Source: a virus. From it: a stretch of 64,000 nucleotides of DNA. A model generated the notes under the pieces. That model did no database searches. It was given only the letters and a program-made list of their open reading frames with translations, and was not told where the DNA came from. Positions 5,170-49,905 of this stretch are shown here, one piece after another. Both the position numbers and the translations under genes were made by a program. Every line of letters begins with the position of its first letter. The stretch's first letter is position 1. The stretch covers positions 1 to 64,000 of the IMG/VR virus record IMGVR_UViG_3300046703_000247. One strand, 5' to 3'.

Positions 5170-5225
5170 GCCGCAGCCACCAGAGGCGAAACCTGCGGTT
5201 TCTCCCCCGGTACCCCTTCTTCCCT
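5170..5225 (-). repeat. hairpin repeat copy R2
   Basis: rev-comp AGGGAAGAAGGGGTACCGGGGGAGAAACCGCAGGTTTCGCCTCTGGTGGCTGCGGC. Confidence 0.9.
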
Positions 5226-5441
5226 TCAGCACCCGAGCGGACGGCTCAGAATGAACCGTTGCGGCGATTGGCTGATGGCGGCAATCTCTCTTGGCGGTAG
5301 ATCGGGCATGTCAACCCATTTGACCGGGCGCCCGAATAATTCGCGCGGCTCCGCTTCCGAATGGAGCGTAAGCCGAACCACATCTTGCATCGGCCGTTCT
5401 TTACTGACCGGCCTTTTGAGCGATTCCACAATTTGGCTCAT
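5226..5441 (-). CDS. cassette mini-gene between R2 and R3
   Basis: Fills the R2-R3 interval almost exactly; TGGTACAAC extended -10-like box just upstream of ATG. Confidence 0.6.
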   Translation of the reverse strand: MSQIVESLKRPVSKERPMQDVVRLTLHSEAEPRELFGRPVKWVDMPDLPPREIAAISQSPQRFILSRPLGC

Positions 5442-5460
5442 GTCTCCGTTGTACCACCGA

Positions 5461-5516
5461 AGGGAAGAAAAAGGTTCGGAAAAAGAAACCTCGGTTTCGT
5501 TTTCCGAGGCTTCGGC
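5461..5516 (+). repeat. hairpin repeat copy R3
   Basis: AGGGAAGAAAAAGGTTCGGAAAAAGAAACC-TC-GGTTTCGTTTTCCGAGGCTTCGGC. Confidence 0.9.
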
Positions 5517-5547
5517 ATAAACAGCCGCCTAGAAACGAGAACAGCCC

Positions 5548-6348
5548 ATGAGCACCCCCCCAGCTTCAGCCTTCCCGCAAACCGCCGCCTGGAACGCCTC
5601 GATCTTCGGCGGCCCCGGCGTAACCGTGGGGTCGGACATCCTCTATCCGGCCCTGCGCCTACTGCGTCTGATCCGCCCCGGTCAAGGCCCCCAACCCGAA
5701 ATCCTCACCGAAGCGCTAGCGGCACTGAACTCGATGATCGACTCGTGGAACATCGAGCGGTTGATGATCTACGCCGTATTGCGCAGCGTGTTCACCCTGG
5801 TTGCAAGCGACGGAGACTACAGCATCGGCCCTTCGGGAGACTGGCTCGTGGATAGCCGACCGTCGCGCGTGGAGAAGGCCGGCCTGATCGACATCAGCAA
5901 TCCGGCGCAGCCGCTCGAGCTGCCCATCGAGGTCCTCACCCTCGACAAGTGGAAGGCGATCACGCTCAAGAGTCTCGCCTCCACCCTCCCGCTGAGCCTC
6001 TACTACGACCAGAACCTGGACGTGGGCTCGGGCATGGTCTACGTCTGGCCGGTCCCGACCGTGGCCAACCAGGTGGCGCTCTACCTGTGGCGCTCCCTGC
6101 TCATGTTCCAAAGCGTGGAAGAGGCTTTCGATGTGCCGCAGGGCTACCTGCGTGCCTTGAAGTACAACCTGGCGGTGGAACTCGCGCCGTCCTATGAGAA
6201 CGCCGTGCTCAGCCCGCGGGTGGTGCAGACAGCGGCGGAAAGCAAAGCCCGGATCAAGAGCCTGAACGCGCCCTCGCTCGTGATGCGCTGCGACTCGGGG
6301 CTGCTCAACAACTCCGGCGGTGGGTCGGACTGGAGGACGGGGCAGTAG
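5548..6348 (+). CDS. head-tail adaptor, P22 gp4-like (paralogue 2)
   Basis: Aligns by eye with 4372..5055 (ALAALN..I.SW.IER, PLSLY, WP.P, P.GY..L..LAV). Confidence 0.75.
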   Translation: MSTPPASAFPQTAAWNASIFGGPGVTVGSDILYPALRLLRLIRPGQGPQPEILTEALAALNSMIDSWNIERLMIYAVLRSVFTLVASDGDYSIGPSGDWLVDSRPSRVEKAGLIDISNPAQPLELPIEVLTLDKWKAITLKSLASTLPLSLYYDQNLDVGSGMVYVWPVPTVANQVALYLWRSLLMFQSVEEAFDVPQGYLRALKYNLAVELAPSYENAVLSPRVVQTAAESKARIKSLNAPSLVMRCDSGLLNNSGGGSDWRTGQ

Positions 6349-6349
6349 G

Positions 6350-7471
6350 ATGTCGTTCGCCAACGGCTACACATACCGGCGCTCGATCACGGTCGATAAG
6401 GATCTCGTCCCGAACACCGATCAGACGGATTTCCCGGTTCTGGTTTCGGGGACCTATTCCTACCTCGCGCACACGACGCACGGAGGGCTCTGCACCGATC
6501 TGAATGGCTACGACATCGCATTCTATGCCGACGAAGCCGGAACAACGCCGCTCTACTGGGAGATCGAGTCGTACAACCACGAAACCGGCGCGGTGGTGTT
6601 CTGGGTGAAGGTGTCGCTCGCCACGGCGTCTGACACGGTATTCTACGTCTTCTACAGCAACGCCTCCGTCAGCACATTCCAGAGCACCGCGGCGAGCGTT
6701 TGGAGCGCGTCCTTTGTAAGCGTCTTTCACCACAAGGACACCAACGGTACGGACAGTCTCGGTGCCAACAATCTGGCAGGTATCACAGGCACTCCCGATG
6801 CAGCGGCAGGTCAAATCAACGGGGGGATGTACTGTAACAACGAGAGCAAATATAAAGCCGCGCCAGTGTCCGGGATTCCCAGCGGAACAGCCGCCAGAAC
6901 CTACTCTAAGTGGTTTAAGTTGGCCGCCACCGGGCAGGTTGACAAGTATATGGGTGGGTGGGGAGACACAGGGGTGGGAGCCAATGGAACCGCTTGGGTA
7001 TTTACTGTCTGGAACTCTGGAGCCAACTGGTACGTCAGCCTTCACACGACCGGAAGCGGCGGAACTGCTTATTTCACCCAAGACACGGAATGGCACCATC
7101 TTGTCGCCACACTACCGACGGGCGGTGGGAATGCCGACATTAAAATCTACCTAGATGGAGTAGACGGCACTCTTGCGGGAGCGACTGGCACCATCAATAC
7201 CTCTGTTGCTGGCGGAATATCTGCCGGGGATCGCCCTTACGTTGGCGCTGGTGCCAACTTCACAATGGACGAGGAACGCATCTCATCCATTGTCCGCTCC
7301 GCCGACTGGATCGCCACCGAGTACAACAACCAGTCCGACCCGAGCACGTTCTACGCGGTGGGGGACCAGGCGGAAGCGGGTGGCGAACCACCGGCCGGGG
7401 GAATGAACCCAGGCATCCTGCGCGGTCTCAACCGCGGCCTCAACCGCGGTATGGCCGCAAGACTTCAATGA
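6350..7471 (+). CDS. DUF2341 + LamG/ConA-like domain protein
   Basis: YRRSITVD...DFPVLV...LYWEIESY...WVKV; WHHLVAT..IYLDG; MDEERIS..RSADWIATEYNNQ. Confidence 0.8.
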   Translation: MSFANGYTYRRSITVDKDLVPNTDQTDFPVLVSGTYSYLAHTTHGGLCTDLNGYDIAFYADEAGTTPLYWEIESYNHETGAVVFWVKVSLATASDTVFYVFYSNASVSTFQSTAASVWSASFVSVFHHKDTNGTDSLGANNLAGITGTPDAAAGQINGGMYCNNESKYKAAPVSGIPSGTAARTYSKWFKLAATGQVDKYMGGWGDTGVGANGTAWVFTVWNSGANWYVSLHTTGSGGTAYFTQDTEWHHLVATLPTGGGNADIKIYLDGVDGTLAGATGTINTSVAGGISAGDRPYVGAGANFTMDEERISSIVRSADWIATEYNNQSDPSTFYAVGDQAEAGGEPPAGGMNPGILRGLNRGLNRGMAARLQ

Positions 7472-8957: not shown

Positions 8958-9463
8958 CCAAGATCAACCTCTGCTGCGGGCAGAGCATCCTCCCCGGCTA
9001 CGTGAATGTGGACGCCTGGCCCGGCGCCGGTGTGGACGTGGTACTGGACGCCCGCGACCTCCAATACGACGAGGGGATTGTGGACGAAGTCCTGATGTTC
9101 CACTGCATTGAGCACTTCTCGCTGGATGATGCCTGCGCCCTGCTCCGCAAGGTCTTCCGCTGGCTCAAACCGGGAGGGCATGTGATTGTCGAGGGGCCGG
9201 ATGTGCGGAAGGCCGTCGAGAACTGCAAGACCGGAGACTTCGACGCCATCAAGGGCATCTTCGGTGACATCGCGGAGCTGCGCAAGGGCAAGGAAGGCTA
9301 CCAGCACAAGTGGGGCTGGACCGGGGCGCTGATGCAGCAGGAGTTGGCCTCCGCCGGCTTCAACGTCGGCGAGGTGGAGGCGGGTCTCTCGCACTCTCCG
9401 CACGAATGGCGCGACTACCGAGTGGTCGGATTCAAACCCCAGGCGGTGAAACATGGCCTTTAA
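8954..9463 (+). CDS. class I SAM-dependent methyltransferase
   Basis: KINLCCG...GYVNVD; H.IEHF; RWLKPGG motifs. Confidence 0.85.
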   Translation: MTKINLCCGQSILPGYVNVDAWPGAGVDVVLDARDLQYDEGIVDEVLMFHCIEHFSLDDACALLRKVFRWLKPGGHVIVEGPDVRKAVENCKTGDFDAIKGIFGDIAELRKGKEGYQHKWGWTGALMQQELASAGFNVGEVEAGLSHSPHEWRDYRVVGFKPQAVKHGL

Positions 9464-11270
9464 GAAGAACACCGGCAACCAGATCCTCTTCATCCTGACG
9501 AAGTCGGGTGATGGCAGCCACGCCAAAGGCGCGACGGTTTCTCAGGTCACCGCAGGTGGTGCATCCTACGTGCTGGTGAGCAACGGATCGGCCGCTGTTG
9601 CCAGCAAGGGGACGATTTCGCGGGCCGCCAGCCTGGTCAAGTCCGGTGTGTTCCGGCAGTCTCTGAAGGCGGCGGAATGCAACGGCGACATGGCCCTGTA
9701 TATGTTCACGGCCACGAGTTGCGCGCTTCAGCTCATCCCGGTCACCTTCGAGGCGAACACCCCTGGAGAAACCTACTCCCGGGTGCTTCTGAACGGTTCG
9801 CTGGCCTCGGATGCGCACAGCCAGTGTGTGTTGGCCACCTCGGCGGCGCGCCAGGCCGCCAGCCGCGCGCTGGTCATTCAATCCTTAGCCTCCGATGCCC
9901 AGTCGATGGCACAGCAAACCTACAGCCGTGTGATGCTTACGGCCTCTCTGGCGAGCGATGCTCACTCCCAGGCAGTTCTAGCCACCTCCGCTGCGCGGCA
10001 AGTGAACTCGCGGGCGCTGATTGTTCAGTCCTTGGCTTCCGACACCCACAGCCAGTGCGTTCTCGCGGTCTCTGCCGCCCGGCAGGGCAATTCCCGGGCC
10101 TTGCTCATTCAATCCCTAGCCTCCGACGCCGTATCGGCAGCCAGAGCCGTAGTGGTTACCATCGGGGCCTCCGACATCTCAGCGATCGCCTCAACGGTGG
10201 CCTCGGCCGTTCTCGCCGCTGGAGTGGGCGGGGATAATGCCTCTCGGATCTGGGCCTATTCCGACGCCGCCGCCACGAAATCGGCAGCCGAGCAGGCCAA
10301 CGCCCGCGCCCTGGTAATCCAATCTCTCGCCTCAGACGCCGAATCCCAGGCACAACGGAGCTACTCAGCCGTCCAACTCGCCACAAGCGCGGCCCGGCAA
10401 GGCGTTTCCCGGGCTCTCATAGTCCAGAGTCTGGCCTCCGATGCCCACAGCCAGGCGCTCCGCGTCTATTCCGCAGTAGCAGCGGGGGCGGGCGGGGCAA
10501 CGCCATCCGAAGTCTGGGCTTACCCCAATGCGGCAGCCGTGTTGAGCGCTGCGCAGGAAGCCAACTCCCGGGTGCTGGTGGTGCAGTCGGCGGCTTCGGA
10601 CGCCGTCGCGCTGGGCGTCCTTTCGACCAGTGCGGCTCGCCAGGCGGCTGCGCGGGCTCTCGTGATCCAGAGCCTCGCTTCCGATACCCACTCCCAAGCG
10701 GCGCGGACCTACTCGGCGGTGGCGGCCGGGGCCGGAGGCGCAACTCCTTCGGAGGTATGGGCCTATTCAGACGCCGCAGCGGTGCTGAGCGCCGCGCGCA
10801 AAGGCAGTTCCAGGGTGTTGACTGTCCAGTCGCTTGCCAGCGATGCCCAAAGTGTTGCCGCGGCCGCCTACTCCCGGTGCGTGCTGGCGACCAGCGCAGC
10901 CCGGCAAGGAAGTTCCCGCGCCCTAGTGGTTCAATCGCTGGTCTCGGATACCCACTCCGCAGCGATTCAGGGACTATCGCGGGCGCTGAGCATTCAGTCC
11001 CTCGTGAGCGACGTTCACTCCTTGGTGCAGGACGTTCCTACAGCGGATGAGAACGCCGACAAACTGCTCGGCCGCAACATCGCCGGCGCCTCGGATGGCG
11101 GCAGGACCGTCACCGGCGCCCTGCGCACTGTTCGCAACAAGATCGACACCGTAACGGTTCCAGGCTACGCCATCATCTACAGGGAAGACGACCTCACCGA
11201 AGACCACCGGCGCGCTCTGGCCACGGACGCCTCGGCGTTGCCGATCGTAACCTCCGACCCCACCACATAG
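9453..11270 (+). CDS. Ala/Ser-rich repeat protein (fibre/decoration-like)
   Basis: More than 12 repeats of SRAL(V/I)QSLASDAHS and 3 of (E/R)(V/I)WAY. Confidence 0.8.
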   Translation: MAFKKNTGNQILFILTKSGDGSHAKGATVSQVTAGGASYVLVSNGSAAVASKGTISRAASLVKSGVFRQSLKAAECNGDMALYMFTATSCALQLIPVTFEANTPGETYSRVLLNGSLASDAHSQCVLATSAARQAASRALVIQSLASDAQSMAQQTYSRVMLTASLASDAHSQAVLATSAARQVNSRALIVQSLASDTHSQCVLAVSAARQGNSRALLIQSLASDAVSAARAVVVTIGASDISAIASTVASAVLAAGVGGDNASRIWAYSDAAATKSAAEQANARALVIQSLASDAESQAQRSYSAVQLATSAARQGVSRALIVQSLASDAHSQALRVYSAVAAGAGGATPSEVWAYPNAAAVLSAAQEANSRVLVVQSAASDAVALGVLSTSAARQAAARALVIQSLASDTHSQAARTYSAVAAGAGGATPSEVWAYSDAAAVLSAARKGSSRVLTVQSLASDAQSVAAAAYSRCVLATSAARQGSSRALVVQSLVSDTHSAAIQGLSRALSIQSLVSDVHSLVQDVPTADENADKLLGRNIAGASDGGRTVTGALRTVRNKIDTVTVPGYAIIYREDDLTEDHRRALATDASALPIVTSDPTT

Positions 11271-11303
11271 GACACCTGTTCGCGTTGTGTCGAGGATCAA
11301 GCA

Positions 11304-14832: not shown

Positions 14833-14836
14833 CCCC

Positions 14837-15328: not shown

Positions 15329-15651
15329 TGCACCCGTTCTGGCATCCGGTTTTCGGTAGACTCCGTCGAACCTCACTGACACCGGCAGTTCCTCCGCCGC
15401 CCCCGGAGTTGCATCTCGGGTTGATGTTTTGGCACCCGATCCTTGGCAGGCTGCGGGCCTGGTTCGGCATCGGAACGCCCAGCGGCCGCCCGGCGGTGTT
15501 TCTTGGCACTATCAACGGGCAGGCAATCTTCCTCGGTGGGATGGATGGGGCCTGTTCACTTGGTTCTATCAATGCGGTGGGGCTCGACCTGGGAACGATG
15601 GAGGCGGGGGCGGTCCGGTTGGGGAAGATTCCGATCAGACGCGGCTCTTAA
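15325..15651 (+). CDS. hypothetical protein
   Basis: ATGA overlap with previous gene; FWHP(V/I)(F/L)GRLR repeated twice. Confidence 0.55.
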   Translation: MMHPFWHPVFGRLRRTSLTPAVPPPPPELHLGLMFWHPILGRLRAWFGIGTPSGRPAVFLGTINGQAIFLGGMDGACSLGSINAVGLDLGTMEAGAVRLGKIPIRRGS

Positions 15652-15997
15652 CTTCTATGCCGTACCTTTGGGAGACGGAACCCTGCGGTTCCTTCCCCCA
15701 AACCCGCTTCTTCCCTGATCCGAAAGGGAAAGGCTGGAGAAGTTCGAGTGTGGAACTCATGGCCCGATTGTGGAACTCCTGCAAACGAACCACGGAGTTG
15801 GGTAAGGCGGGCCGGGGCCAGAGTTCAATGAGACCGTTTGGCTGCATCCAGTACATCTGTGGTGCCAACGCTCCGTACGGGAAATATGGCGGAATGGCGC
15901 CCATCCTTCCCTTAGCTGGTGCGGCCACCTTCGACACCGGCACAGCCGGCGCGGCGGCCATCCCCAGCAGCATGCGGAGCAGCCCGCGGCGGTTCAT
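15635..15997 (-). CDS. twin-arginine mini-protein with adaptor-like fragment
   Basis: MNRRGLL + hydrophobic stretch; PQMYWMQPNGLIELWPRP resembles adaptor P...Y....LWP.P. Confidence 0.7.
   Translation of the reverse strand: MNRRGLLRMLLGMAAAPAVPVSKVAAPAKGRMGAIPPYFPYGALAPQMYWMQPNGLIELWPRPALPNSVVRLQEFHNRAMSSTLELLQPFPFGSGKKRVWGKEPQGSVSQRYGIEVKSRV
15659..15716 (-). repeat. hairpin repeat copy R4
   Basis: rev-comp AGGGAAGAAGCGGGTTTGGGGGAAGGAACC-GCAG-GGTTCCGTCTCCCAAAGG. Confidence 0.9.
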
Positions 15998-16281
15998 GAT
16001 GTTCCTTCGGCACGCTGGCTGAACCGCGCGGGTTTGCGAACCTCCAAGGTATCCCCGATTTTCGGCCCTTTGAAGGCAAACTGGTTCTCATAATCGCGGT
16101 TTACCATTTTGGCGAATGCGAGATGCTTTTTAAGAATGGCCAGCATCTCCCTCGTGATTTCCGACTGAGTCAATAGTCGGTTTCCGGGCCACGGCAGCCG
16201 GGCAGCCAGAGTGTTGCGCAGTGGAAACGTGGCGGAGGCCGCAGCCCCCAAGAGAGCGCCGATGAACCCGCGCCGATTCAT
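15994..16281 (-). CDS. twin-arginine mini-protein fused to P22-type coat protein N-terminus
   Basis: MNRRGFIGALLG; NRLLT..EITREML.IL...L.F...VNRDY...F...G.KIGDTL.VRKP; TAGAAT just upstream of ATG. Confidence 0.8.
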   Translation of the reverse strand: MNRRGFIGALLGAAASATFPLRNTLAARLPWPGNRLLTQSEITREMLAILKKHLAFAKMVNRDYENQFAFKGPKIGDTLEVRKPARFSQRAEGTS

Positions 16282-16293
16282 GTCCCCATTCTA

Positions 16294-16350
16294 AGGGAAG
16301 AAAAGGTCCTAGGAAAAGAAACCGTAGGTTTCGTTTCCTGGAGCCCCGGC
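16294..16350 (+). repeat. hairpin repeat copy R5
   Basis: AGGGAAGAAAAGGTCCTAGGAAAAGAAACC-GTA-GGTTTCGTTTCCTGGAGCCCCGGC. Confidence 0.9.
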
Positions 16351-16370
16351 CAATAAAGGGAATTTGAGCC

Positions 16371-17278: not shown

Positions 17279-17284
17279 ACCCCC

Positions 17285-18979: not shown

Positions 18980-19001
18980 GTTTGCGCGAACGTTCTATTT
19001 T

Positions 19002-19060
19002 CTGAAGCCTGAAGGGAGCGAAACCCTGCGGTTTCTCTCCCTTCCAACCCACTCTTCCCT
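19002..19060 (-). repeat. hairpin repeat copy R6
   Basis: rev-comp AGGGAAGAGTGGGTTGGAAGGGAGAGAAACC-GCAG-GGTTTCGCTCCCTTCAGGCT. Confidence 0.9.
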
Positions 19061-19129: not shown

Positions 19130-19462
19130 GTGAAAATCAGGTACCGTATCGCGACCGCGGCAGTGGGCGTGGCGCTCCTGGTTGTGTTGTCCGCCCTGCC
19201 GATAGGGGGCGCACGGACCTACAAGGTGCTCGTGAAGTGGCAGGATAACGCGAATCCGTCCGGAACGACGTACCTGTTGTATCGAGCCGTGGGTGCTTGC
19301 AGCGCGACTTCGCAATTCTCGCAAATTGCGGCGACAACTAAAAAGAGCTATACGGATTTGCTCAAGCCCGGAGACTACTGCTTCCGCTGCACGGCGATAG
19401 CGAAGGGGCTTCCCGAATCCGCGCCCTCGAATCTGGTCACCGTCAGAAAGGCGGACTTCTAG
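19130..19462 (+). CDS. secreted fibronectin type III-like protein
   Basis: RBS AAGGAG, GTG start; signal peptide; W......Y.LYR...YTD....Y...A....ES.PSN. Confidence 0.7.
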   Translation: MKIRYRIATAAVGVALLVVLSALPIGGARTYKVLVKWQDNANPSGTTYLLYRAVGACSATSQFSQIAATTKKSYTDLLKPGDYCFRCTAIAKGLPESAPSNLVTVRKADF

Positions 19463-20055
19463 TGAAATCCTTACTGCTATTCTTTGTTGCGATCCCCGCG
19501 TTCGCACAGGTTCACAGCGCCACACTCTCCTGGAATCACGCAGACCCAGCGGCGACGTTCTCGATTTATAAGGCATCTGGACCGTGTTCGAGCAGTCCGG
19601 CGTTCGCAAAAATTGCCAGTGGCATCACCGTCAAAACGTATCAGGATTTGGCCGTGGCGACCGGAGCCTACGCCTACGTCGCCACCGCAACGGTCGCGGG
19701 CGCGGAGAGCGTCTATTCCAATTGCGCGGATGCCCTTGTCCCGGCGTTTGCGCCGACTGGGCTCTCTGCCGGACCTGTTGCCAATGGGGCCGTGCCGCTG
19801 ACGTGGGCGGATCCGCAGGTTGGCGCGACGTGGAGCGTCTATCGTTCCCCCAGCGCCTGCAACCAGACGCCGACGTGGGCCAAGCTCGTTGGCGGCCTGA
19901 CGACGCGAGCATACAGCGATTCTACCGTTCCGATGGGCAGTTCCTGCTATGGGGTCACCGCCACATTGAACGGAGTAGAGTCTCCCATATCCAGCAGCGT
20001 GACCGTAACCCGGTCCGCTGCGGCCCCTACCGGGTTGACGGTGCAGGTACAGTGA
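19462..20055 (+). CDS. secreted protein with two FN3-like domains
   Basis: Signal peptide; two LSW/LTW...YK/YR...Y.D...Y.(A/V)TA...ES repeats. Confidence 0.75.
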   Translation: MKSLLLFFVAIPAFAQVHSATLSWNHADPAATFSIYKASGPCSSSPAFAKIASGITVKTYQDLAVATGAYAYVATATVAGAESVYSNCADALVPAFAPTGLSAGPVANGAVPLTWADPQVGATWSVYRSPSACNQTPTWAKLVGGLTTRAYSDSTVPMGSSCYGVTATLNGVESPISSSVTVTRSAAAPTGLTVQVQ

Positions 20056-20067
20056 TTTCCCACCACC

Positions 20068-20448
20068 ATGTCTAGAGCCATGGAATACGCGGGCTTGGGG
20101 ACGATGCAATTGCGGCCCTTTAAGCCCGGCCAGTTGCTTCACCGTCGCGTTCAGCAGCCGCCGCGCGAACTCCCACTGCTGACCACGCGGCAGGCGCAGG
20201 TTGTCGCGCTGGTGCGGGAGGGTATCCACTCCACAAAGGAGATTGCGTTTCGCATGGGGTGGACGCCTCAAAGCGCGAAAGTGATGCTGGTGCTGCTCTA
20301 TCGGAGACTGCAAGCGAATGGCTACGGCGTGGACAACTTGACCTCGCTAGCCATCTGGGCCTTCGCTCCAGAGGTTCTCCGCAGGGAAGAAAAGGGTTCT
20401 AGGAAAAAGGAACCGTCCGGTTCCGTTTCCCTGGAGCTTCAACCGTAA
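20068..20448 (+). CDS. LuxR-type HTH regulator
   Basis: LTTRQAQVVALVREG..STKEIA.RMG.T..S.K.....LYRRL; C-terminus runs into R7. Confidence 0.7.
   Translation: MSRAMEYAGLGTMQLRPFKPGQLLHRRVQQPPRELPLLTTRQAQVVALVREGIHSTKEIAFRMGWTPQSAKVMLVLLYRRLQANGYGVDNLTSLAIWAFAPEVLRREEKGSRKKEPSGSVSLELQP
20383..20444 (+). repeat. hairpin repeat copy R7
   Basis: AGGGAAGAAAAGGGTTCTAGGAAAAAGGAACC-GTCC-GGTTCCGTTTCCCTGGAGCT. Confidence 0.9.
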
Positions 20449-23580: not shown

Positions 23581-23596
23581 TCCGAACGGCGCTGCC

Positions 23597-24926: not shown

Positions 24927-24927
24927 T

Positions 24928-24982
24928 TGAAGCCACCAGGGGCGAGACCCGGCGGTCTCTCCCCCGGTACCCCCTCGTCCCT
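24928..24982 (-). repeat. hairpin repeat copy R8
   Basis: rev-comp AGGGACGAGGGGGTACCGGGGGAGAGACC-GCCG-GGTCTCGCCCCTGGTGGCT. Confidence 0.85.
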
Positions 24983-24998
24983 GATCTGCTCCGTCCGA

Positions 24999-25054
24999 AG
25001 GGAGAAAAAGGGTTTGGGAAAAGGAACCATAGGTTCCGTTTCCCGAGGCCCCAC
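24999..25054 (+). repeat. hairpin repeat copy R9
   Basis: AGGGAGAAAAAGGGTTTGGGAAAAGGAACC-ATA-GGTTCCGTTTCCCGAGGCC. Confidence 0.9.
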
Positions 25055-25072
25055 TTGAAAGAGGCAATCTTT

Positions 25073-26377
25073 ATGGAACACAAACGCAGTTTCCCACGGG
25101 CCATTCTTGGCCTGATCGCGGTTATGGTCCTGTCGGTAGTCGCACTGAACTGGCAGACCCTGGCCCAGAGCACCGGGCAGTCGGCCATGTACGCGCAGAT
25201 CTTCAAGACCCAGACGTCGACGGGCCGCAGCCTGATCTTTGTAGATGCCCGGGGAGTCGGCGCGACCAACCACGTCTTCACCTGGACTACGGCTGGAGTT
25301 CCCAGCGGCTGCACCCTGCTCATCGAATCGAGTCTGGATGCCGTCACCTGGACCACGGCGAGCACCCAGACCTGCACCTCGAGCGGGAGTGTGACCCTCG
25401 CAGATGCCAGTTATTCCTTCCTGACCGCGAATCTGAGCGTGCTGACGGGCGGCTCTACGCCGTCGATCGACGTGGCCTATCGCGGGTACCTGCCGGGGCA
25501 GGGCGTCCCCGTGCGCCCGGCGGAAGGCGGGACCGGCAGCACAACCGCCTTCACGGCGGGCTCGGTGCTCTTCAGCGGAGCCTTGGGTGTCTACACCCAG
25601 GACAATGCCAACTTCTTCTGGGACAACTCAAATAAGCGCCTGTGCCTGCTGGCGGCCGCCTGTTCGAACACTCTCGACGTTGGCAACGGCAAGTTCTCGG
25701 TGACTTCGAACGGGCTGCTCACGAGCTACGACGCCACCCTGCGTGCGCGCGTGGCCGGGAGCGTGGCCAGCACGGTAACAGGGGCAGCCTCCCAGACCGC
25801 CGCTCTCAGCGAGTGGAAGAACAGCGCGGGAAGCGTGCTGGCGAGTGTCACGGCAGCCGGGGTGATCACCCCGACCTCGGGTATCGCGGGGACCGGGAAG
25901 TCCCGGTTCTCGACCGTGCCGATTGGCTTCACCGCCTACGGCTCCTTTGGAACCAACACAACTCTGGTTGCCGGAACGATCTATTGGGCCGAGGTCTTCA
26001 TCCCGCGCAACGTCACCCTCACGGGGATCGGCGTCTTGAACGGCGCGACCGTGGGCACCGACAAGTGGATTGTGGGGCTGTACGGATCTGCGGGTGGCGC
26101 CGTGTTGGCCAACAGCGCCCTGGCCGGAGCGACTGCGAGCGGCGCGGACGCCTTCCAGGAGCTGGCTTTCACGGCGACCTATGCGGCGGTCGGACCGGCG
26201 CGGTACTGGATCGCATTTCAATCCAACGGAACCACCGCCAAGATCCGCACGATTGCGGTGAACACGTTTGTGGATGTGCTGACCGATAGCGATACAGGAT
26301 CGTTTGGGATACTGACGGCTTTGACGGCGCCGACCACGTTCACAGCGGATTTGGGACCCATAGCCTACGTGTACTGA
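25073..26377 (+). CDS. fibre-like protein with signal peptide
   Basis: GGTG..T.FTAGSVLF....G...QDNANFFWDN.NKRL fibre motif; lies between R9 and R10. Confidence 0.7.
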   Translation: MEHKRSFPRAILGLIAVMVLSVVALNWQTLAQSTGQSAMYAQIFKTQTSTGRSLIFVDARGVGATNHVFTWTTAGVPSGCTLLIESSLDAVTWTTASTQTCTSSGSVTLADASYSFLTANLSVLTGGSTPSIDVAYRGYLPGQGVPVRPAEGGTGSTTAFTAGSVLFSGALGVYTQDNANFFWDNSNKRLCLLAAACSNTLDVGNGKFSVTSNGLLTSYDATLRARVAGSVASTVTGAASQTAALSEWKNSAGSVLASVTAAGVITPTSGIAGTGKSRFSTVPIGFTAYGSFGTNTTLVAGTIYWAEVFIPRNVTLTGIGVLNGATVGTDKWIVGLYGSAGGAVLANSALAGATASGADAFQELAFTATYAAVGPARYWIAFQSNGTTAKIRTIAVNTFVDVLTDSDTGSFGILTALTAPTTFTADLGPIAYVY

Positions 26378-26387
26378 GCGATTAGAG

Positions 26388-26442
26388 GCCGAAGCCTCGG
26401 GGACGAAACCCGGCGGTTTCTTCCCCAAACCCCTTCATCCCT
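26388..26442 (-). repeat. hairpin repeat copy R10
   Basis: rev-comp AGGGATGAAGGGGTTTGGGGAAGAAACC-GCCG-GGTTTCGTCCCCGAGGCTTCGGC. Confidence 0.9.
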
Positions 26443-26449
26443 GATCGCA

Positions 26450-26758
26450 ATGCCCAAGCTCAAAGGCGTCAGCAACTCCGAGGGCCAGCGTCTGGGCTAC
26501 ATGATGGAGTGCCCCGGCTGCGGCCAGTGGCACGTCATCTACACCGAACAAGCCAACGACCTCAAGGCCCGCTGGACCTTCGACGGAAACATGGAGAAGC
26601 CCACCTTCCACCCTTCCATTCTGTGCCGCTGGACCGAAGGCAAGGAGCAGGTGAAGAAGGTCTGTCACTTCTTTGTGCGCGCGGGCAAGATCGAGTTCTG
26701 CGGCGACTCGACACACGCGCTGGCGGGTAAGACCGTAGATCTACCGGACTGGAGTTAA
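26450..26758 (+). CDS. DUF6527-like Zn-binding protein
   Basis: CPGC...H...W.FDGN.EKPTF.PSIL...CH.FVR.G.I.FC.DSTH.LAG.TV.LP. Confidence 0.75.
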   Translation: MPKLKGVSNSEGQRLGYMMECPGCGQWHVIYTEQANDLKARWTFDGNMEKPTFHPSILCRWTEGKEQVKKVCHFFVRAGKIEFCGDSTHALAGKTVDLPDWS

Positions 26759-26764
26759 CTGCTA

Positions 26765-27088
26765 ATGCCAATCCCAGAAATGCTTTGGTGGCTGATCGTC
26801 GCGCACGCCCTCTGCGACTTCCCGTTGCAGGGCGACTTCCTGGCGCGCGGGAAGAACCACCGCGCTCCGATTGCCGGGGTGCCCTGGATTATCTGTCTCT
26901 TCTCCCACGCGCTGATTCACGGCGGAGCGGTGGCGCTCGTGACCGGCAGCGTCTTACTCGGAGCGGCCGAGACTGCCGCACACGCCTGGATTGACTGGGC
27001 CAAGTGCGACGGCCGCTACGGGTTCGCGGTGGACCAAGGGCTGCATCTGCTGGTCAAGGTCGGGTGGGTGATTTGGCTGACGCGCTAG
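26765..27088 (+). CDS. DUF3307 family membrane protein
   Basis: AHALCDFPLQ...H..IH...H..ID..K...DQ.LH. Confidence 0.8.
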   Translation: MPIPEMLWWLIVAHALCDFPLQGDFLARGKNHRAPIAGVPWIICLFSHALIHGGAVALVTGSVLLGAAETAAHAWIDWAKCDGRYGFAVDQGLHLLVKVGWVIWLTR

Positions 27089-27091
27089 AAC

Positions 27092-27406
27092 TCAGCCGTG
27101 CCGGTGCCGGCGAGCGCGGCGAGGAATCCATGGCGGTTCAGGGCTTCTTTTCATGGACACTTTCTTTCCCAATACAGGCTGGAAGCAGAAGGACGATTCA
27201 ACCACTTCCGTGATTCGGAACTGTGTCGGGTCCTCAAAGAACGTAACAATGTCCCCAACATTGAGAAATGCCAGACCATTGACCTGGCAAGCAGTTCCCG
27301 GCGGAATACATCCGAGAGACGGGATGCCGGCTGCCGGTGCGGGCTGCGGCAGCAGTGGCGCGGCAATCGCGCCCGCCAGCGCTCCGATGAACCCGCGTCG
27401 ATTCAT
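27092..27406 (-). CDS. twin-arginine mini-protein with possible coat-insertion-domain-like fragment
   Basis: Internal ATG 27406 gives MNRRGFIGALAGAIAAP; LNVGDIVTF...QFRIT motif; TGGCAGAAT 6 nt upstream. Confidence 0.7.
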   Translation of the reverse strand: MNRRGFIGALAGAIAAPLLPQPAPAAGIPSLGCIPPGTACQVNGLAFLNVGDIVTFFEDPTQFRITEVVESSFCFQPVLGKKVSMKRSPEPPWIPRRARRHRHG

Positions 27407-27425
27407 AAACCCATTCTGCCACCGA

Positions 27426-27481
27426 AGGGAAAAGAAAGGTTCGGAAAGAGAAACCTCGGTTTCGTTTTCCGAGGCCCCCAG
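27426..27481 (+). repeat. hairpin repeat copy R11
   Basis: AGGGAAAAGAAAGGTTCGGAAAGAGAAACC-TC-GGTTTCGTTTTCCGAGGCC, close to R3. Confidence 0.9.
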
Positions 27482-27496
27482 TAAAGGAACCGTGCC

Positions 27497-41000: not shown

Positions 41001-44000
41001 TGGCGCGGCATCAAGCAGCGCAATGTGCTCCTGGCCCACTGGGTAGGAACCGGCAAAACCTTCGAAGGCATCACCATCGGCATGGAGCTGAAGCGGCTGG
41101 GTCTCATCCAGCGGCCGATGTACGTGGTTCCGAACGCCACCCTGGGCGGTTGGCAGTTGCAGTTCAACCAACTCTACCCGCAGAAGCGCGTCATTGTTTT
41201 CAGCGAGAAGGACCTGGAGAAGGAAAACCGGCGGGCCACTATCGCGCGCATCGCGGGCGGCGAGTGGGACGCGGTTGTCATGCCCGAGTCCAGTTTCCGG
41301 TTCATCCGCACCGGCGACGAGATCTTCAACCAGCATTTTCAGCGTCTCCAGGAAGAATTGGACACCTCCATCCAAGAGGCTGAGGGCGCCGGGATGGACA
41401 CCCGGATGATTAAGCGCATGGAAAAGATGCGCGACAAGCTGCTCACGGCCCTGCAGGATAAGCGCAACGCGGAGCGGCAGGATCAGACCATCATCTGGGA
41501 GCAGTTGGGGATCGATTGGCTGTTCGTGGACGAATCCCACCACTACCGCAAGTTGGGGTTCTCAACCAAACAGCAGAACATCGCCGGCATCGATGTGAAC
41601 GGCAACCAGATGACGTTCGACCTGCTCATGAAGATGCGGCACGTCCAGACGACCGGGCGCGGAGTGGTCTTCGCCACGGGTACACCGATTGTCAACACCA
41701 TTGGGGAAATGTACTCTCTGATGCGCTACCTGATTGAGCCGGAAATGCAGGCGCGCGGCATCGGCCGCTTCGATGAATGGTCGGCCGACTACGCCCGGAC
41801 GGTCCCCGTGTTCGAACCGAAGGTGGAGGGTGGCGGCTACCGGATGAAGGACCGCTTCGCCCGCATCGTCAACATCCCCGAGTTGGCGAACCTGTTCCGC
41901 TCCTTCGCCGATGTGGTCACCAATGACATGGTAGACCTAAAGATCCCGGGTTTGGCGGGAGGGGAACGCAAGAGCATCCTGACGGACTTGAGCGACGAGC
42001 AGACTCAATATCTGGAAGAAGATCTGCGACCCCGCGGGGCCGCTATTCGCCACAACCCCCGGGATGCCATGCCGGACAACATGCTGGCTGTCTATACCGA
42101 CGCCGGCAAGATGGCATTGGACATCCGGACGGTAATGCCGCACGCCAAAGAGGACCCCGGCAGCCGGCTGAACAAAGCCGCCGAAATCATCTTCCGCGAC
42201 TGGCAGGACAGCGCGAAGACGAAGGGCGTACAGGCCATATTCTGCGACTGGGGCAAGCCCAACAGCGCGCGCCCCCTTGCGGATCGCGGGCAGTTCTCGG
42301 TGTACGACGAGCTGATTCGAAAGCTGATTAAAAAAGGCATCCCGCGCGAGCAGATTGCCACTATCTATCAGGCGAAAGGGAAGGACCAGCGGGCCCGGCT
42401 CTTCCAGCAGGTGAACGAGGGGACCATCCGGATCATCCTCGGTTCCACGAAGAAGCTCGGTGAAGGCGTAAACATTCAGGAGCGCCTATATTCCCTTCAT
42501 CACCTGGACCTGCCGCACACGCCCTCGGAACTAGACCAGCGCGAAGGCCGCGCCCTGCGCCAAGGGAACACCAACCCCGACGTGCGGGTGTACTACTACA
42601 TGACCCGGGGCTCACTCGACGAAATGAAGTTCGCCAACGTCCTGCGTAAGGCGAAGTTCATCCTGGCCATGATGCAGGGCAAGGCCACGGTACGCGAGGC
42701 CGACGACGTGGGCGGTATGATCCCCTCTCTTGAGATGTTCCAGGCGGCCACCTCGGGGGATCCGCGCGTGCTGAGGAAGATGGAGGTTGACGCCGAAGTA
42801 GCGCGCCTCGAGGCCATTCACTACGCCTGGCGGAATCAGCAATGGGACGAGCGGCGCCAGTTGGCGGACCTGCCTGGCAGAATCAGTCGCTTTGAAACTA
42901 CCATCTCCAATTCCCGAAGTGACATCGCCCTGCGGGACGCGCACCTGCCGGGGGTGTGGTCGGTCCGCGGGCAGACCTATGAAGGCAAAACTCCGGAAGC
43001 GGCGAAGGCACTTGCCGAGTACTCCAACAGCAGGCGAAGGGAGCATGACGCGGATCTGAAAACGGAGATGGCCAAGGCTATAGCGGAAGGCGGTGAAGAC
43101 GCCAAGAAGGTCCGCGCGCTACAGAATCGAGCCTTTACAGAAGCGGGGAAGCGCTTTCCTCCCGAGATCATCGCTGAATACGCCGGTTTCAAGATCCGGT
43201 TTGATCCCATTGATGGGGCAATGACCATCGTTGGCGAAGGGTCCGCATACGGGATGGAGCGGCAGGACACCGCGACAGGCACGCTCGCGAGCGCAGCCTA
43301 CTTCATTCACCACCATTTTGAAAAGGCCATCACCAGTGCCGAAGAGGACATTGCCCGCGCCAGGCGCGACGAGGAACAGTTGCAGATCTCTGTCGGAAAG
43401 TCCTGGCCCTATCAGAAGCAGTTCGACAACCTGGTTGCCGAGCAGGAGACCCTGACTCACGATTTGGGCGGCGATCACGGAGACCCCGGCGCCGCTCTGC
43501 TCGAGGATGGGGAGGAAATAGAAGACAAGCGGGTGGAAGCCGAGGAGACGGCAGAGTCTGGAGACGAGGCCCAGCCGGAGCAGCCGCACCCAACCACACC
43601 CAATCCACCTACGCCGGGCCGGCGGCCGGGAGCAGCTACGCAATCCCGCCGCTCCAGCCAGGCCGGCGCGGCCAGCCTCGATCTGCTCACCCTGGGAGCG
43701 CCCAAGTTCATCCAAGAGGATGTCGCCCCAGCCCTCGGCAGGGTCGCCCAGAACTTTGTGGCGGTCAAAAACGAGATCTTCACGATTATCGCCCCGGCCG
43801 CTCGCGGGCCCGCCGCCAAACAAACTGCCCTCTCCGTGCGCTACCGGGCGGCCGAGTTGGCCCAGAAGACGGACCGTGCCCTGGCCGCCCTCAAGGAAAC
43901 CCGCCGCTACTTCGACTCGCTGCCCGAGTGGAACCGGTTGGAGTTCATGGACCGCATCGAAAACGGCCAGCAGCAGATCTATCCACAGGAGGACGCGATT

Positions 44001-46415: not shown

Positions 46416-46451
46416 AACATCCTGCAACCCACTGAAACGCTCTGCAACACC

Positions 46452-46868: not shown

Positions 46869-46986
46869 AGTGCATTTTCAAGGCCGCCCCGCATTCCTGT
46901 TGGGTGGTTGTGGACATCGAGAAAAAGATCAACCAGTTCATCCTGGGGATGGACGAGCGGCAGGACAAGCGGAAGGGTGGATTGTG

Positions 46987-47447: not shown

Positions 47448-47506
47448 ACGCCCGACGCCCGCGGACTCCGCGCGGCCCAGACCGAATCTTTTGAAAGGCA
47501 CTTCCT

Positions 47507-47758: not shown

Positions 47759-47766
47759 CCCTCCCA

Positions 47767-48135: not shown

Positions 48136-48157
48136 ATCTGCATCATCCTGCCTTTTT

Positions 48158-48217
48158 GCTGCTACTCCAGGGGAACGAAACCTCACGGTTTCTTTCCCCT
48201 CGCCCCCTTTCATCCCT
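48158..48217 (-). repeat. hairpin repeat copy R20
   Basis: rev-comp AGGGATGAAAGGGGGCGAGGGGAAAGAAACC-GTGA-GGTTTCGTTCCCCTGGAGTAGC. Confidence 0.85.
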
Positions 48218-48234
48218 TCGGCTAGAATCGAAGC

Positions 48235-48660
48235 ATGAACCGCCGAGGGTTCCTCTTCACAGCCTTGGGAGCACCCGCTGTTGTTGTTGGCGCGACCGCG
48301 CCCACCACGCGCTTACAACCTCCCGGCCTGCCTGTAGATCCTCAGTTTGATTTTGTCGACGGGGCACATTACTGTGCTGGGCTGTACTACGGCCGCCGGG
48401 TTGCCTTCGCTTCGCCAAATTATCCCAACCGCCTCTGGTTTTCCCGTGCCGATCCCCCGCGCCGCTTTCACGACCCCTACGGTATTGGCGACTGGGTCGA
48501 CGTCGGCGATTCATGGGACCGGATCGTTTCAGTCTATGTTTGGCACGCGGACCTGATTATTCGCAAGCTCAACAGTGAATGGCAGTTCTGCGGCGACCTA
48601 GACTGGGGCATTTTCTATTTTCTGGGTGATCCCCAACGGAGAGGAGTTCTGAGAGTATGA
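48235..48660 (+). CDS. twin-arginine mini-protein with nozzle/tail-hub beta-propeller-like fragment
   Basis: MNRRGFLF; YYGRRVAFASPNYPNRLWFSR...DRIVSV...HADLII; TAGAAT 6 nt upstream of ATG. Confidence 0.75.
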   Translation: MNRRGFLFTALGAPAVVVGATAPTTRLQPPGLPVDPQFDFVDGAHYCAGLYYGRRVAFASPNYPNRLWFSRADPPRRFHDPYGIGDWVDVGDSWDRIVSVYVWHADLIIRKLNSEWQFCGDLDWGIFYFLGDPQRRGVLRV

Positions 48661-49007
48661 ACCGCCGCGGCTTCCTGGCTATGCTGGCTGGCGCGGTGCT
48701 CGACCCCGAGCGCTTGCTCTGGGTGCCGGGGAAGAAGCTCATCTCTATTCCGGCAGAATCCGCGCCCTGGCCTTGGCGGCACGGACCGTTTCTCGTAACC
48801 GCGCACATGGAAGGTTCCAGCGACGTGGCCGCCATTATGGAACGCCTACTCAATCACCGTTGGACGATGGACCCCGTGTGGCGACAGCACGCGCAAGACA
48901 TGATTGACCGCGACATGCAACGGATTCTTCTGGGCGAGGTGCAGCAGACCATCGGGTTCTTCCGCACTTCCGAGAAACCTACTCCTTCGCTGCAGATGTC
49001 GGCCTGA
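48657..49007 (+). CDS. twin-arginine mini-protein
   Basis: MNRRGFLAMLAGAVLDPERLLWVPG; ATGA-coupled. Confidence 0.75.
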   Translation: MNRRGFLAMLAGAVLDPERLLWVPGKKLISIPAESAPWPWRHGPFLVTAHMEGSSDVAAIMERLLNHRWTMDPVWRQHAQDMIDRDMQRILLGEVQQTIGFFRTSEKPTPSLQMSA

Positions 49008-49338
49008 CAATAATAGGCGGTGTCACCTGCTGCATGACTCGTTCCATCGCCAACTCGTCGTAGGCGCTGAGCCGCTCCTGCAAGTGTTCAAAGGCGTTTT
49101 CACAGCAGCGCAGCACGTCCTCACACCAGCGGATCTTTTCTCTCTCCATCTCAGCCTTGCTCCAGAAATCCAGTTGACGAGGGACCAGAAACATCCGCTC
49201 CTGCGTCAACGCTAGGATTTGCCGCGCCAGTTGGTGCGCCACTGTTGGAGGGGGCGGCAGACGCATGCGCGGCTGAAGGGATGAAGGGGCTTCCGGGGAA
49301 GCAACCGCAGGTGGCGTCCCCGGAGGCTGCGATTTCAC
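48979..49338 (-). CDS. hypothetical coiled-coil protein
   Basis: Coupled to 49335..49517; N-terminus encoded by R21. Confidence 0.55.
   Translation of the reverse strand: MKSQPPGTPPAVASPEAPSSLQPRMRLPPPPTVAHQLARQILALTQERMFLVPRQLDFWSKAEMEREKIRWCEDVLRCCENAFEHLQERLSAYDELAMERVMQQVTPPIIVRPTSAAKE
49277..49331 (+). repeat. hairpin repeat copy R21
   Basis: AGGGATGAAGGGGCTTCCGGGGAAGCAACCGCAGGTGGCGTCCCCGGAGGCTGCG. Confidence 0.85.
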
Positions 49339-49517
49339 TTGGAATCCTTTACCAGACGATCCACCAGCTTGCTGAAGTTCAGATCCCCGTCTACCTGCAC
49401 GGTACGCTCCTCCCCGCGTTCAAAGTGATCCAGGTCCAGCTCCTGGACATAGACGAAGTCCGCAATCTGACCATGCAGCCATTCACAGACGATCTTCCGG
49501 GCAAGCGCCTCTTTCAT
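49335..49517 (-). CDS. hypothetical protein
   Basis: RBS GAGGAG upstream. Confidence 0.55.
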   Translation of the reverse strand: MKEALARKIVCEWLHGQIADFVYVQELDLDHFERGEERTVQVDGDLNFSKLVDRLVKDSK

Positions 49518-49529
49518 CAGAACAACTCC

Positions 49530-49754
49530 TCACTTCTCCCACCTGGCCAGAGCGGCCACCCTGGCAATCTCAGATCGTCGCTTTGCCGACAACTTCTTTG
49601 CCCTGGCTCTGCCGCCGGCCGCGCCGCCTTGCCGCCCAATCTCACTGAGTTGCTCAGGAGATAAGGATGCTGCGCGGGCCTTGCCTCCCTTGGAAGCTCC
49701 GAGCTTTCCCAGAGCAACCGCGTGCGGGTTTTTGTAGACCATCACGTCAAGCAT
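49530..49754 (-). CDS. small basic KGG-repeat-like protein
   Basis: KNPHAVALG.LG.SKGGKARA..LS.E..SEI.R; second repeat ending AALARW. Confidence 0.75.
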   Translation of the reverse strand: MLDVMVYKNPHAVALGKLGASKGGKARAASLSPEQLSEIGRQGGAAGGRARAKKLSAKRRSEIARVAALARWEK

Positions 49755-49848
49755 ACCGGACCCGCCCAAGACAAGCAAGAGGCTTGGCCCTGTTTTTATG
49801 CGTGACATACGCGGCTAGATCAGGCATACTCAAGCCGTGATACGAGGA

Positions 49849-49905
49849 AGGGAAGAAAAGGTTCAAGGAAAAGAAACCGCAGGTTTCGTGTCCTTGGGCT
49901 CCAGC
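49849..49905 (+). repeat. hairpin repeat copy R22
   Basis: AGGGAAGAAAAGGTTCAAGGAAAAGAAACC-GCA-GGTTTCGTGTCCTTGGGCTCCAGC. Confidence 0.9.

Follow-up and report, generated by a model that had tools for sequence, protein, structure and literature searches.

The 64,000-nt stretch analysed here (the window; positions 1 to 64,000 of the IMG/VR virus record IMGVR_UViG_3300046703_000247) carries many copies of a repeat of about 65 nt, and the question raised by this locus is whether the repeats mark places at which phage genes are exchanged. An initial annotation had proposed that inverted pairs of the repeat bracket accessory genes of the late operon as hotspots of capture or exchange. The repeats form one family with a common structure and a common rule of placement, and breakpoints between genomes coincide with them. 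We consider it an even bet that they are recombinogenic, possibly mobile boundary cassettes that work like the promoter-early stem-loops (PeSLs) of T4-type phages.

The record is a single viral contig of 83,233 bp (GC 62%; CheckV completeness 86%, class linear), of which the window covers 64 kb; it is called G000 below. Its portal (PF16510, E 5e-155) and coat (PF11651, E 2e-41) proteins mark it as a P22-like podovirus, with the Hc3/stabilisation protein (phrog_578, E 4e-104) and an ejection protein (phrog_598) as further markers. The ejection genes are followed by an open reading frame (ORF) of 5,786 aa at 29055-46415. Hc3 protein identity was used as the yardstick of relatedness. By this measure the closest relatives were P0003-P0007 (63-70% identity, one of them on a contig of about 87.8 kb) and the best cultured phage reached 41%; a further relative, P0122, had 70% identity in the core of the giant protein; no nucleotide match to cultured phages was found, and an Hc3 protein search of IMG/VR gave no match. 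A metagenome scan with Hc3 yielded relatives at 57% identity or less (L004 and L005, 57%; L006, 47%).

Each copy of the element consists of a purine tract (AAGGGAAGAARRGG), a 14-bp covarying hairpin, and the tail GGAGGCTGCGGC, with the consensus nnnAGGGAAGAARRGG-(3-6 nt)-GGGGAAGAAACC-(2-4 nt loop)-GGTTTCGTCCCC-GGAGGCTnCGGC. The purine (AGGGA) side is referred to as the P-end and the GGC side as the G-end. A profile made from nine copies gave 29 hits in the window, and 25 distinct copies (R1 to R25) were left when four opposite-strand self-hits of the palindrome had been removed. All but one scored between E 1e-7 and 1e-20 (24 of 25); R8 at 24927 scored E 1.4 with the nine-copy profile and 2e-14 with a 25-copy profile. 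The 83,233-bp contig as a whole had 31 copies, 17 (+) and 14 (-), after removal of one self-hit. No Rfam family matched the window at E<=1.

The hairpin was supported by covariation: 93.8% of stem cells were paired (79.3% in shuffles), compensatory changes on both sides were seen in 10 of the 14 stem pairs, the observed level of covariation was reached by 0 of 500 shuffles, and pairing collapsed when the partner was slid. Three loop-proximal pairs (ACC/GGT) and the G-C pair beneath them were invariant in 30/30 copies, the lower stem covaried, and a mid-stem A.G mismatch was kept in 29/30. The core GAAACC-N2-4-GGTTTC was invariant, with a loop of 2 to 4 nt between its conserved half-sites. The copies and the intervals they delimit were placed in the window as follows (RR genes are small genes beginning MNRRGF/L; HTH, helix-turn-helix).

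R1, 732..795 (+): stands alone between two + genes, with ATG 815 at 20 nt from the G-end.
R2, 5165..5227 (-): 110 nt past the stop of gene 4372-5055.
R2/R3 interval, 5228..5451: 224 nt, with a weak antisense 71-aa ORF at 5226-5441.
R3, 5452..5528 (+): G-end 20 nt before ATG 5548.
R4, 15656..15716 (-): 5 nt past stop 15651.
R4/R5 cargo, 15635..16281 (-): two antisense RR genes (MNRRG...), 15635-15997 and 15994-16281.
R5, 16284..16359 (+): ATG 16371 follows its G-end by 12 nt, and an antisense RR gene starts 3 nt from its P-end.
R6, 18993..19060 (-): 14 nt past the stop of the Hc3 gene 17285-18979.
R6/R7 cargo, 19130..20448 (+): two paralogous small genes and a weak HTH protein, the C-terminus of which is read from R7.
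R7, 20376..20447 (+): 26 nt before ATG 20473.
R8, 24927..24981 (-): immediately 3' of stop 24926.
R9, 24989..25065 (+): 7 nt from R8; ATG at about 25079.
Block R8..R11, 24927..27496: gene 25055-26377, DUF6527, DUF3307, and an antisense RR gene.
R10, 26382..26441 (-): 5 nt past stop 26377.
R11, 27416..27492 (+): 5 nt before ATG 27497; the antisense RR gene (27403->27092) starts at its P-end.
R12, 31646..31713 (-): in frame, aa 864-886; left edge of inserted block 1.
R13, 31904..31963 (-): in frame.
R14, 32148..32207 (-): in frame; 243 nt (81 codons) after R13.
R15, 33730..33806 (+): in frame, aa 1559-1584; right edge of block 1.
2H phosphoesterase domain, 33807..34363 (+): the G-ends of R15 and R16 point to it.
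R16, 34364..34429 (-): in frame, aa 1770-1792; left edge of inserted block 2.
R17, 35127..35202 (+): in frame.
R18, 36729..36794 (+): in frame.
R19, 38008..38083 (+): in frame, aa 2985-3010; right edge of block 2.
R20, 48153..48225 (-): 18 nt past stop 48135; an RR gene begins 10 nt beyond the P-end.
R20/R21 cargo, 48235..49007 (+): two RR genes, 48235-48660 and 48657-49007.
R21, 49270..49330 (+).
R22, 49846..49915 (+): 3 nt before ATG 49918.
R23, 53434..53511 (+): in the first 60 codons of a PD-(D/E)XK nuclease ORF as called.
R24, 55150..55205 (+): 40 nt before the serine recombinase gene 55245-55907.
R25, 60072..60140 (-): G-end 52 nt upstream of the leftward gene 59412-60020; overlaps the 3' end of a methylase ORF.

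All pairs named in the initial annotation were recovered by the profile search as a (-) copy followed by a (+) copy with the AGGGA ends inward, and the orientation alternated from R1 to R11 without exception (chance about 0.001 by simple arithmetic). In each of the 22 copies located outside long ORFs, the G-end lay within 170 nt, mostly within 26 nt, of a gene start pointing away from it or a gene stop pointing towards it; this placement was valid for both strands, leftward genes included. The (-) copies followed stops by 0-18 nt in five of the six named cases (R2 by 110 nt) and the (+) copies preceded starts by 3-26 nt. The P-end faced cargo or the P-end of another copy, and the first RR gene of each set began 3 to 13 nt beyond a P-end.

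Most of the cargo was as first described: two antisense RR genes between R4 and R5 (starts MNRRGL and MNRRGF), DUF6527 (E 2e-14), DUF3307 (E 4e-9), and an antisense RR gene between R10 and R11, and two RR genes, both sense, between R20 and R21. The antisense mini-gene placed between R2 and R3 exists as an ORF, though a weak one. Two fibronectin type III (FN3) genes and a LuxR gene had been assigned to R6/R7; the two paralogous small genes are present but gave no Pfam hit of any kind at E<=1, which leaves FN3 unconfirmed, and the supposed LuxR protein is a weak sigma-70 region 4 HTH match (E 1.4e-4, below the cut-off). The spacing of R8 and R9, given earlier as 16 bp, is 7 nt by profile ends. 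The structural genes of the (+)...(-) intervals had been called conserved, which does not apply to gene 25055-26377, as it is not conserved in the nearest relatives compared.

Comparison with other records had been set beforehand as the check on the hotspot proposal. Five cross-record comparisons, drawn from two phage families without relation to each other and from the giant gene, placed breakpoints at the repeats, as did one internal duplication (R13/R14), and the proposal is supported to that extent. The homologues of genes 24066-24926 and 27497-29053 were only 32 nt apart in L005, with no element between them; the G000 counterpart of this gap measured 2,570 nt, beginning with the first base of R8 and ending four bases beyond R11. 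L004, L005, and L006 all lacked the block R8..R11 and had its flanking genes side by side, and the loci compared in these relatives had neither element copies by profile nor any other dispersed repeat family.

The giant ORF 29055-46415 (+) was coherent in codon-position GC from end to end, and eight copies (R12-R19), in both orientations, were in frame within it. Its product had Pfam matches above cut-offs to SLT, Eco57I-type methylase, SNF2-rel_dom, and Helicase_C, and matches below cut-offs to SAP, ResIII, and Acb1 (a weak 2H/Acb1-like match); an HExxH motif was also noticed by eye in the translated sequence, and 221 homologues were obtained at E<=1e-10 after removal of its own entry. As judged by its domains, it is a polyvalent protein with a methylase-helicase dyad; such proteins have been described from phages and conjugative elements (Iyer et al. 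2017, PMC5512222). It was colinear with P0123, P0124, P0125, P0126, and P0128 except for aa 864-1584 (R12..R15) and 1770-3010 (R16..R19). Weak matches of the relatives stopped at aa 863-894, where R12 is located, and the 2H domain was matched in relatives over aa 1577-1809 (37-48%), with R15 ending at 1584 and R16 starting at 1770. The conserved methylase-helicase core started at aa 3065-3108, past the end of R19 at 3010. The two blocks add up to 1,962 aa, and 5,786 minus 1,962 leaves 3,824 aa; the giant proteins of the relatives had 3,622-3,891 aa in four of five cases and 3,461 aa in P0124, so that the two element-bounded blocks account for the approximately 1,960 extra residues. Both blocks are (-)...(+) brackets with the G-ends outward, as for the intergenic cargo. 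Inside block 1, the 55-nt cores of R13 and R14, printed as identical in the repeat listing, stand around an 81-codon in-frame insert.

The same domain edge was met in G007, a complete 87.7-kb distant phage (Hc3 40%, portal 34%, giant-protein core 39%) with two element copies. One of these is in its giant gene, directly before a 2H domain with 48% aa identity to that of G000; the nucleotide similarity of the two phages began at the P-end of R15, ended where R16 begins, and was by eye higher in the element than in the domain.

The other phage family is represented by G001, a complete 55-kb phage with few genes in common with G000, no Hc3 homologue, and six to seven copies. In L210 (72-87% nucleotide identity to G001), the same (-) copy follows the same membrane-protein gene, and beyond its P-end the two records differ: L210 has a different cargo gene and then a (+) copy of another subtype. 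In the relative L208, three direct copies stand where G001 has one, directly upstream of a serine recombinase gene, and the extra cassettes, one with a 51-aa membrane protein and the next with ORFs of 135 and 111 aa, are each preceded by a direct copy. The elements of these otherwise unrelated phages were 86-90% identical in nucleotides.

Two observations concern genes found in both families. The small R6/R7 genes at 19130 and 19462 were 46-49% identical to one gene of G001. Gene 50219-50570 had 76% nucleotide identity to L210 and 70% protein identity to G001, in which it adjoins no element; this looks like a recent exchange between otherwise unrelated phages.

According to the PeSL-like reading, one family of small structured cassettes (purine tract, 14-bp hairpin with its A.G mismatch, and tail) would stand at the edges of gene blocks, with the G-end to the start or stop of the flanking gene and the P-end to accessory DNA, and also in frame at the domain edges of an injected polyvalent protein. 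As short stretches common to otherwise unlike genomes, the cassettes would serve as crossover points at which genes and protein domains are gained, lost, or swapped, probably by homologous or homeologous recombination between copies. The hairpin may in addition have a local regulatory role, as an insulator or terminator after genes and as a leader hairpin before them; this suggestion comes from the positions of the copies and from the A-rich (+) and G-rich (-) subtypes seen by eye on the alignment.

Several points weigh against this reading. Within the phage's own family, the closest relatives compared were at 57% Hc3 identity, with no near-relative pair among them. Homologous recombination alone does not explain the origin of the first inverted brackets, and the breakpoints might simply reflect the tolerance of gene and domain edges to insertions. 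No sigma-70-type promoter was found between 14000 and 33900 (0 against 2.6 expected, with a consensus that may not be the host's), and terminator-like sites were not enriched (20 against 17.1), which leaves a regulatory activity of the element without support. Readings of the element itself as an extracytoplasmic function (ECF)-type or a sigma-70-type promoter had been dropped by eye, as the -35/-10 spacing was inconsistent.

The last of these points concerns the strand on which the hairpin folds. A hairpin selected on the rightward late transcript should, in (-) copies read in element sense, tolerate A.C and not G.T pairs. In element sense, G.T exceeded A.C by 20:3 overall (binomial p 0.0005), by 9:2 in (+) copies, and by 11:1 in (-) copies, and the sense RNA fold was the more stable one in 28/30 copies, including 13/13 (-) copies (means -20.7 and -17.8 kcal/mol). 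Since both the G.T excess and the stability of the sense fold hold for copies of either orientation, it is the element's own strand to which the fold belongs. This counts against a hairpin selected in place on the late transcript, and copy-and-paste spread, from sources that keep this strand under selection, fits it better. The difference between the (+) and (-) subtypes hints at some role in place.

The strand result leads to the main rival, a mobile element of the REP/REPIN or Rickettsia palindromic element (RPE) type. The repeats would then be non-autonomous elements of this type or of the miniature inverted-repeat transposable element (MITE) type, moved in trans by a host or insertion sequence (IS) enzyme that recognises a one-strand hairpin, and inserted at gene edges and, where the frame stays open, in the giant gene, with cassette exchange as a by-product. 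We hold this explanation possible but rather doubtful. A fold kept on the element's own strand in both orientations is what selection during copying would produce, and the invariant top of the stem, the retained mismatch, and the covarying lower stem also speak for this rival. The distribution is also of the kind expected, with 31 copies in G000, two in the distant G007, and none in the L004-L006 loci. The copies are poor in stop codons (open in 4.67 of 6 frames, compared with 3.26 for shuffles), which helps explain how eight in-frame copies in both orientations are tolerated. Comparison of element-coded peptides with 119 giant-protein homologues gave three short matches at E<=0.01 with a proline-rich compositional look, and element peptides were present in 0/119. 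RPEs are reportedly tolerated in frame inside proteins.

On the other side, no filled and empty site differing by a single element was seen. Terminal inverted repeats within one element and target-site duplications beside the G-ends were absent by eye, and the two ends are unlike each other. No HUH or RAYT-type gene was present among the ORFs scanned, which were part of all ORFs, and no search was aimed at RAYT. The doublets join unlike subtypes and are therefore not young palindromic MITEs, and the subtype difference between (+) and (-) copies hints at a function where they stand. Back-to-back (-)(+) doublets 0-7 nt apart were located at contig 79489-79645 (L087:15489-15645) and window 24927-25065, and an origin of the brackets from palindromic-doublet MITEs was set aside, as the arms of both are unlike in subtype. 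The last approximately 27 codons of the portal gene, in the ORF as called, are read from the (-) copy of a doublet.

The occurrence of the element outside this phage also bears on the mobile-element explanation, which its place in an IS-like repeat favours. When single genomes of each prokaryote species were scanned for exact 17-mers, there were, among the matches listed, near-full-length elements (E about 1e-12 or better) at at least 10 loci; the titled loci among these matches were all from Acidobacteriota, Terriglobia or Bryobacterales, and one locus was untitled. A covariance model, with 150 candidates scored per genome, detected 1-4 copies in each of four host-like genomes and 11 in a fifth, in which the element rides on an IS-like repeat; as far as the scored candidates show, such low numbers count against the mobile-element explanation. 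In G002, G004, G005, and G006, the element was subterminal in a multicopy IS-like repeat ending ...TTTGGCTAG, with the G-end towards that terminus. The repeat was observed at L230:3178-4797 (-), in L218, L219, L221, and L226, and at G006 contig ends, with the terminus ...AAATATTTTTGGCTAG. In the G002 repeat, a 539-aa gene starts about 85 nt away from the P-end; its product had no NCBIfam (E<=0.01) or PDB sequence match and only weak helix-turn-helix matches in Pfam (E about 0.01 or weaker). The IS-like repeat showed no terminal inverted repeat. Of three chromosomal host sites outside it, two were between convergent genes and one was beside a tRNA-like gene (by eye). Judging by these matches, the element family circulates in mobile DNA associated with Acidobacteriota, namely two unrelated phage lineages and an IS-like repeat, and Acidobacteriota are the probable hosts of the phages.

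A purely regulatory explanation would give the copies no causal part in exchange. They would be signals of phage-run transcription, read by a NusG paralogue and sigma factors, acting as terminators or insulators one way and as loading or antitermination hairpins the other way, and breakpoints would be located there since gene edges tolerate insertions. A NusG-family protein was encoded at L087:8393-8938 (contig 72393-72938), with an NGN domain (E 2e-17) and a weak KOW match, and genes for sigma-70-family proteins were located at L087:7256-7906 and L087:12808-13368. These genes are just upstream of a rightward late run of about 60 kb, which suggests that late transcription is run by the phage with processive antitermination. 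The close fit of (-) copies behind stops and (+) copies before starts, the G-rich and A-rich subtypes, and the two of three chromosomal host sites between convergent genes agree with such a role. Nevertheless, we judge the purely regulatory version improbable. The element-bearing G001 had no NusG-family gene, which weakens it, four copies are in the terminator-like direction inside the 17-kb giant gene, and the strand test opposes selection of the fold on the late transcript for (-) copies. Identity of 86-90% between unrelated phages, with homology that starts at the element, goes beyond what tolerance of insertions would give.

The third rival takes the repeats as crossover sites of the phage's small serine recombinase, a Hin/Gin-like enzyme that would carry out programmed inversion, excision, or capture. 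The resolvase/invertase-type gene 55245-55907 (Resolvase domain E 7e-40, plus HTH_7) begins 40 nt after R24, the corresponding genes of G001 and L208 start 4-7 nt after an element, and the extra cassettes of L208 are directly upstream of one. The invariant core may resemble hix/gix half-sites. Sites of the Hin/Gin type need a fixed 2-bp core, however, whereas the half-site spacer here varies from 2 to 4 nt, and the arms covary so as to keep pairing, which half-sites bound by a protein need not do. Identity between the G000 enzyme and those of G001/L208 is only 33-36%, and a homologue is encoded in L006, the 21-kb locus of which has no elements. No continuous antisense frame was present between R14 and R15, so that an inversion there would break the giant gene. 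We regard this explanation as very unlikely.

Metagenome contigs of one peat-metagenome run, probably the source sample, were also inspected, and no inverted or deleted form was found in them; contigs are blind to rare forms, so that this result speaks neither for nor against inversion or excision. Three contig joints were rejected as variants; two of them connected R8 with R11, and the third led from R17 back to R5. The flanks of the joints had the same depth as the main contig (about 9.4) and the joining form had a depth of 8.6; with flank depth equal to that of the main contig, a second form at 8.6 cannot share these flanks. Cross-mapping of copies is shown by two of the loose ends, at 32146 and 32187, which correspond to R2-locus sequence as read on R14, and it best accounts for the joints.

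The programmed or integron-like form of capture proposed in the initial annotation was not borne out. The copies occur in both orientations, loop length is 2 to 4 nt, and covariation in the stem is that of a folding hairpin. The Pfam and PHROGs scans, which covered part of the ORFs (many small ones excepted) of a contig rated 86% complete, gave no tyrosine recombinase, IntI-type included, and no sigma-70 promoter match was obtained between 14000 and 33900. The divergence of the serine recombinases of the two phage families and the repeat-free loci of L004-L006 (57% and 47% Hc3) point the same way. A related idea, to which we give little credence, is that the element is the site of an unrecognised cassette-exchange system of Acidobacteriota mobile DNA, with a strand-specific folded site and a dedicated enzyme. 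Candidates for the enzyme are the multicopy 539-aa protein from the IS-like repeat and the small serine recombinases of the phages, and the system may act on whole genes as well as on in-frame domains, in an integron-like way but in both orientations and inside an ORF.

Further observations were made on the cargo and on neighbouring genes. The RR genes are Tat-like at their starts, with weak Pfam TAT_signal matches (E 0.04-0.2, below the cut-off). In gene 15994-16281 (-), the Tat-like MNRRGF start is joined to a fragment of a coat N-arm. This fragment had 50% identity (E 5e-16) to the coat protein of the phage itself, over residues 2-55, and 55% identity to the beginning of the coat protein in the relative L005; the product could be an exported or decoy coat N-arm, or the gene a recombination scar. 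The first RR gene, 15635-15997, had no likeness to coat, and gene 48235-48660 was rejected as a fragment of an Hc3-like hub (BLASTP only E 1.7). Three RR genes that adjoin P-ends (16282-16295, 27404-27418, and 48220-48237) have the hexamer TAGAAT or CAGAAT, as observed by eye, at a distance of exactly 6 nt upstream of the ATG; it looks like the -10 box of a leaderless transcript. R2/R3 is flanked by the paralogous genes 4372-5055 and 5548-6348 (both phrog_12985, with a weak Ad3-adaptor likeness), of which L005 has three in a row.

A PD-(D/E)XK (Cas4-like) nuclease gene (53329-54315) comes after a gene for a proline-rich 235-aa protein (52625-53332), and the two may form a phage recombination module relevant to exchange at short repeats. 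A 231-nt direct repeat (77%) at 11051-11281 and 15109-15339 makes up the 3' ends of two genes of the tail-fibre region and looks like alternative fibre tips. Repeats of 78 to 98 nt, with spacings of 84, 147, and more, occupy window positions 9800-11000 within the 605-aa gene 9453-11270, the product of which is a repeat-built, fibre-like protein.

If the PeSL-like reading is true, such a mechanism reaches beyond T4-type phages to unrelated uncultured soil podoviruses, and a single nucleotide-level joint has two uses, the shuffling of genes in the late region and the shuffling of enzyme domains in a giant injected protein. Element coordinates could then guide the search for new phage-delivered proteins, anti-defence modules such as the 2H/Acb1-like domain included, and the element would be a sequence tag linking phages, an IS-like element, and probable Acidobacteriota hosts, as well as a simple object for bench study of such joints. 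The in-frame copies in both orientations are new here, and the strand-specific conservation in both orientations is explained by no standard model.

Of the known systems, PeSLs are the closest in action. They mediate indels and replacements by recombination in T4-type phages, as reported by Arbiol et al. 2010 (PMC2839356) and Comeau et al. 2014 (PMC4122927), and where other phages have a split gene, a PeSL is sometimes located between its two parts (PMC2839356). Mini-circles that arise by exchange between neighbouring cassettes are a further feature of PeSLs. Both are short repeated stem-loop cassettes at gene edges, dense near accessory genes, and the ends of indels and replacements between related phages fall at the cassettes here too. 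The element is not a PeSL by membership. PeSLs have a sigma-70 consensus promoter and are located upstream of ORFans, whereas no sigma-70 match was found here, and the element has both orientations, a G-end that faces the gene, eight translated in-frame copies, and a strand-specific fold, and is also found in an IS-like repeat and in a phage lineage without relation to this one.

REP/REPIN elements and RPEs are likewise small imperfect palindromes at gene ends, sometimes in inverted doublets. The present element differs from REP/REPIN by its low copy number in host-like genomes and by the lack of a RAYT gene among the ORFs scanned, a scan not directed at RAYT, and from both types by the conserved non-palindromic purine tract and tail and by a different host group. 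MITEs have terminal inverted repeats and a target-site duplication, neither of which was seen by eye, and Hin/Gin sites combine a fixed 2-bp core with a serine invertase, whereas here such a recombinase accompanies a variable spacer and covarying arms. Integron attC sites resemble the element as one-strand folding sites with poorly conserved stem sequence that bound promoter-poor cassettes, and direct arrays are found here as well (L208 c1-c2-c3 and R12-R14). Integron cassettes have a single orientation, in contrast to the 17 (+) and 14 (-) copies and inverted brackets of this contig, which also has no R/L box pattern and has copies inside an ORF.

Morons of lambdoid phages are said to be accessory genes between late genes that are absent from relatives. 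The moron-like part of the initial proposal fits the intergenic cargo, of which R8..R11 lies between late genes and is absent from L004, L005, and L006, and some of the small inserted genes may have start signals of their own. The inserts differ from morons in being bracketed by a shared structured repeat that also bounds inserts of protein domains. The 5,786-aa protein, finally, is like other polyvalent proteins in its methylase-helicase dyad, SLT, 2H phosphoesterase, and HExxH (by eye) modules, and differs from them in that its module joints are a nucleotide-level structured repeat which is also found between genes.

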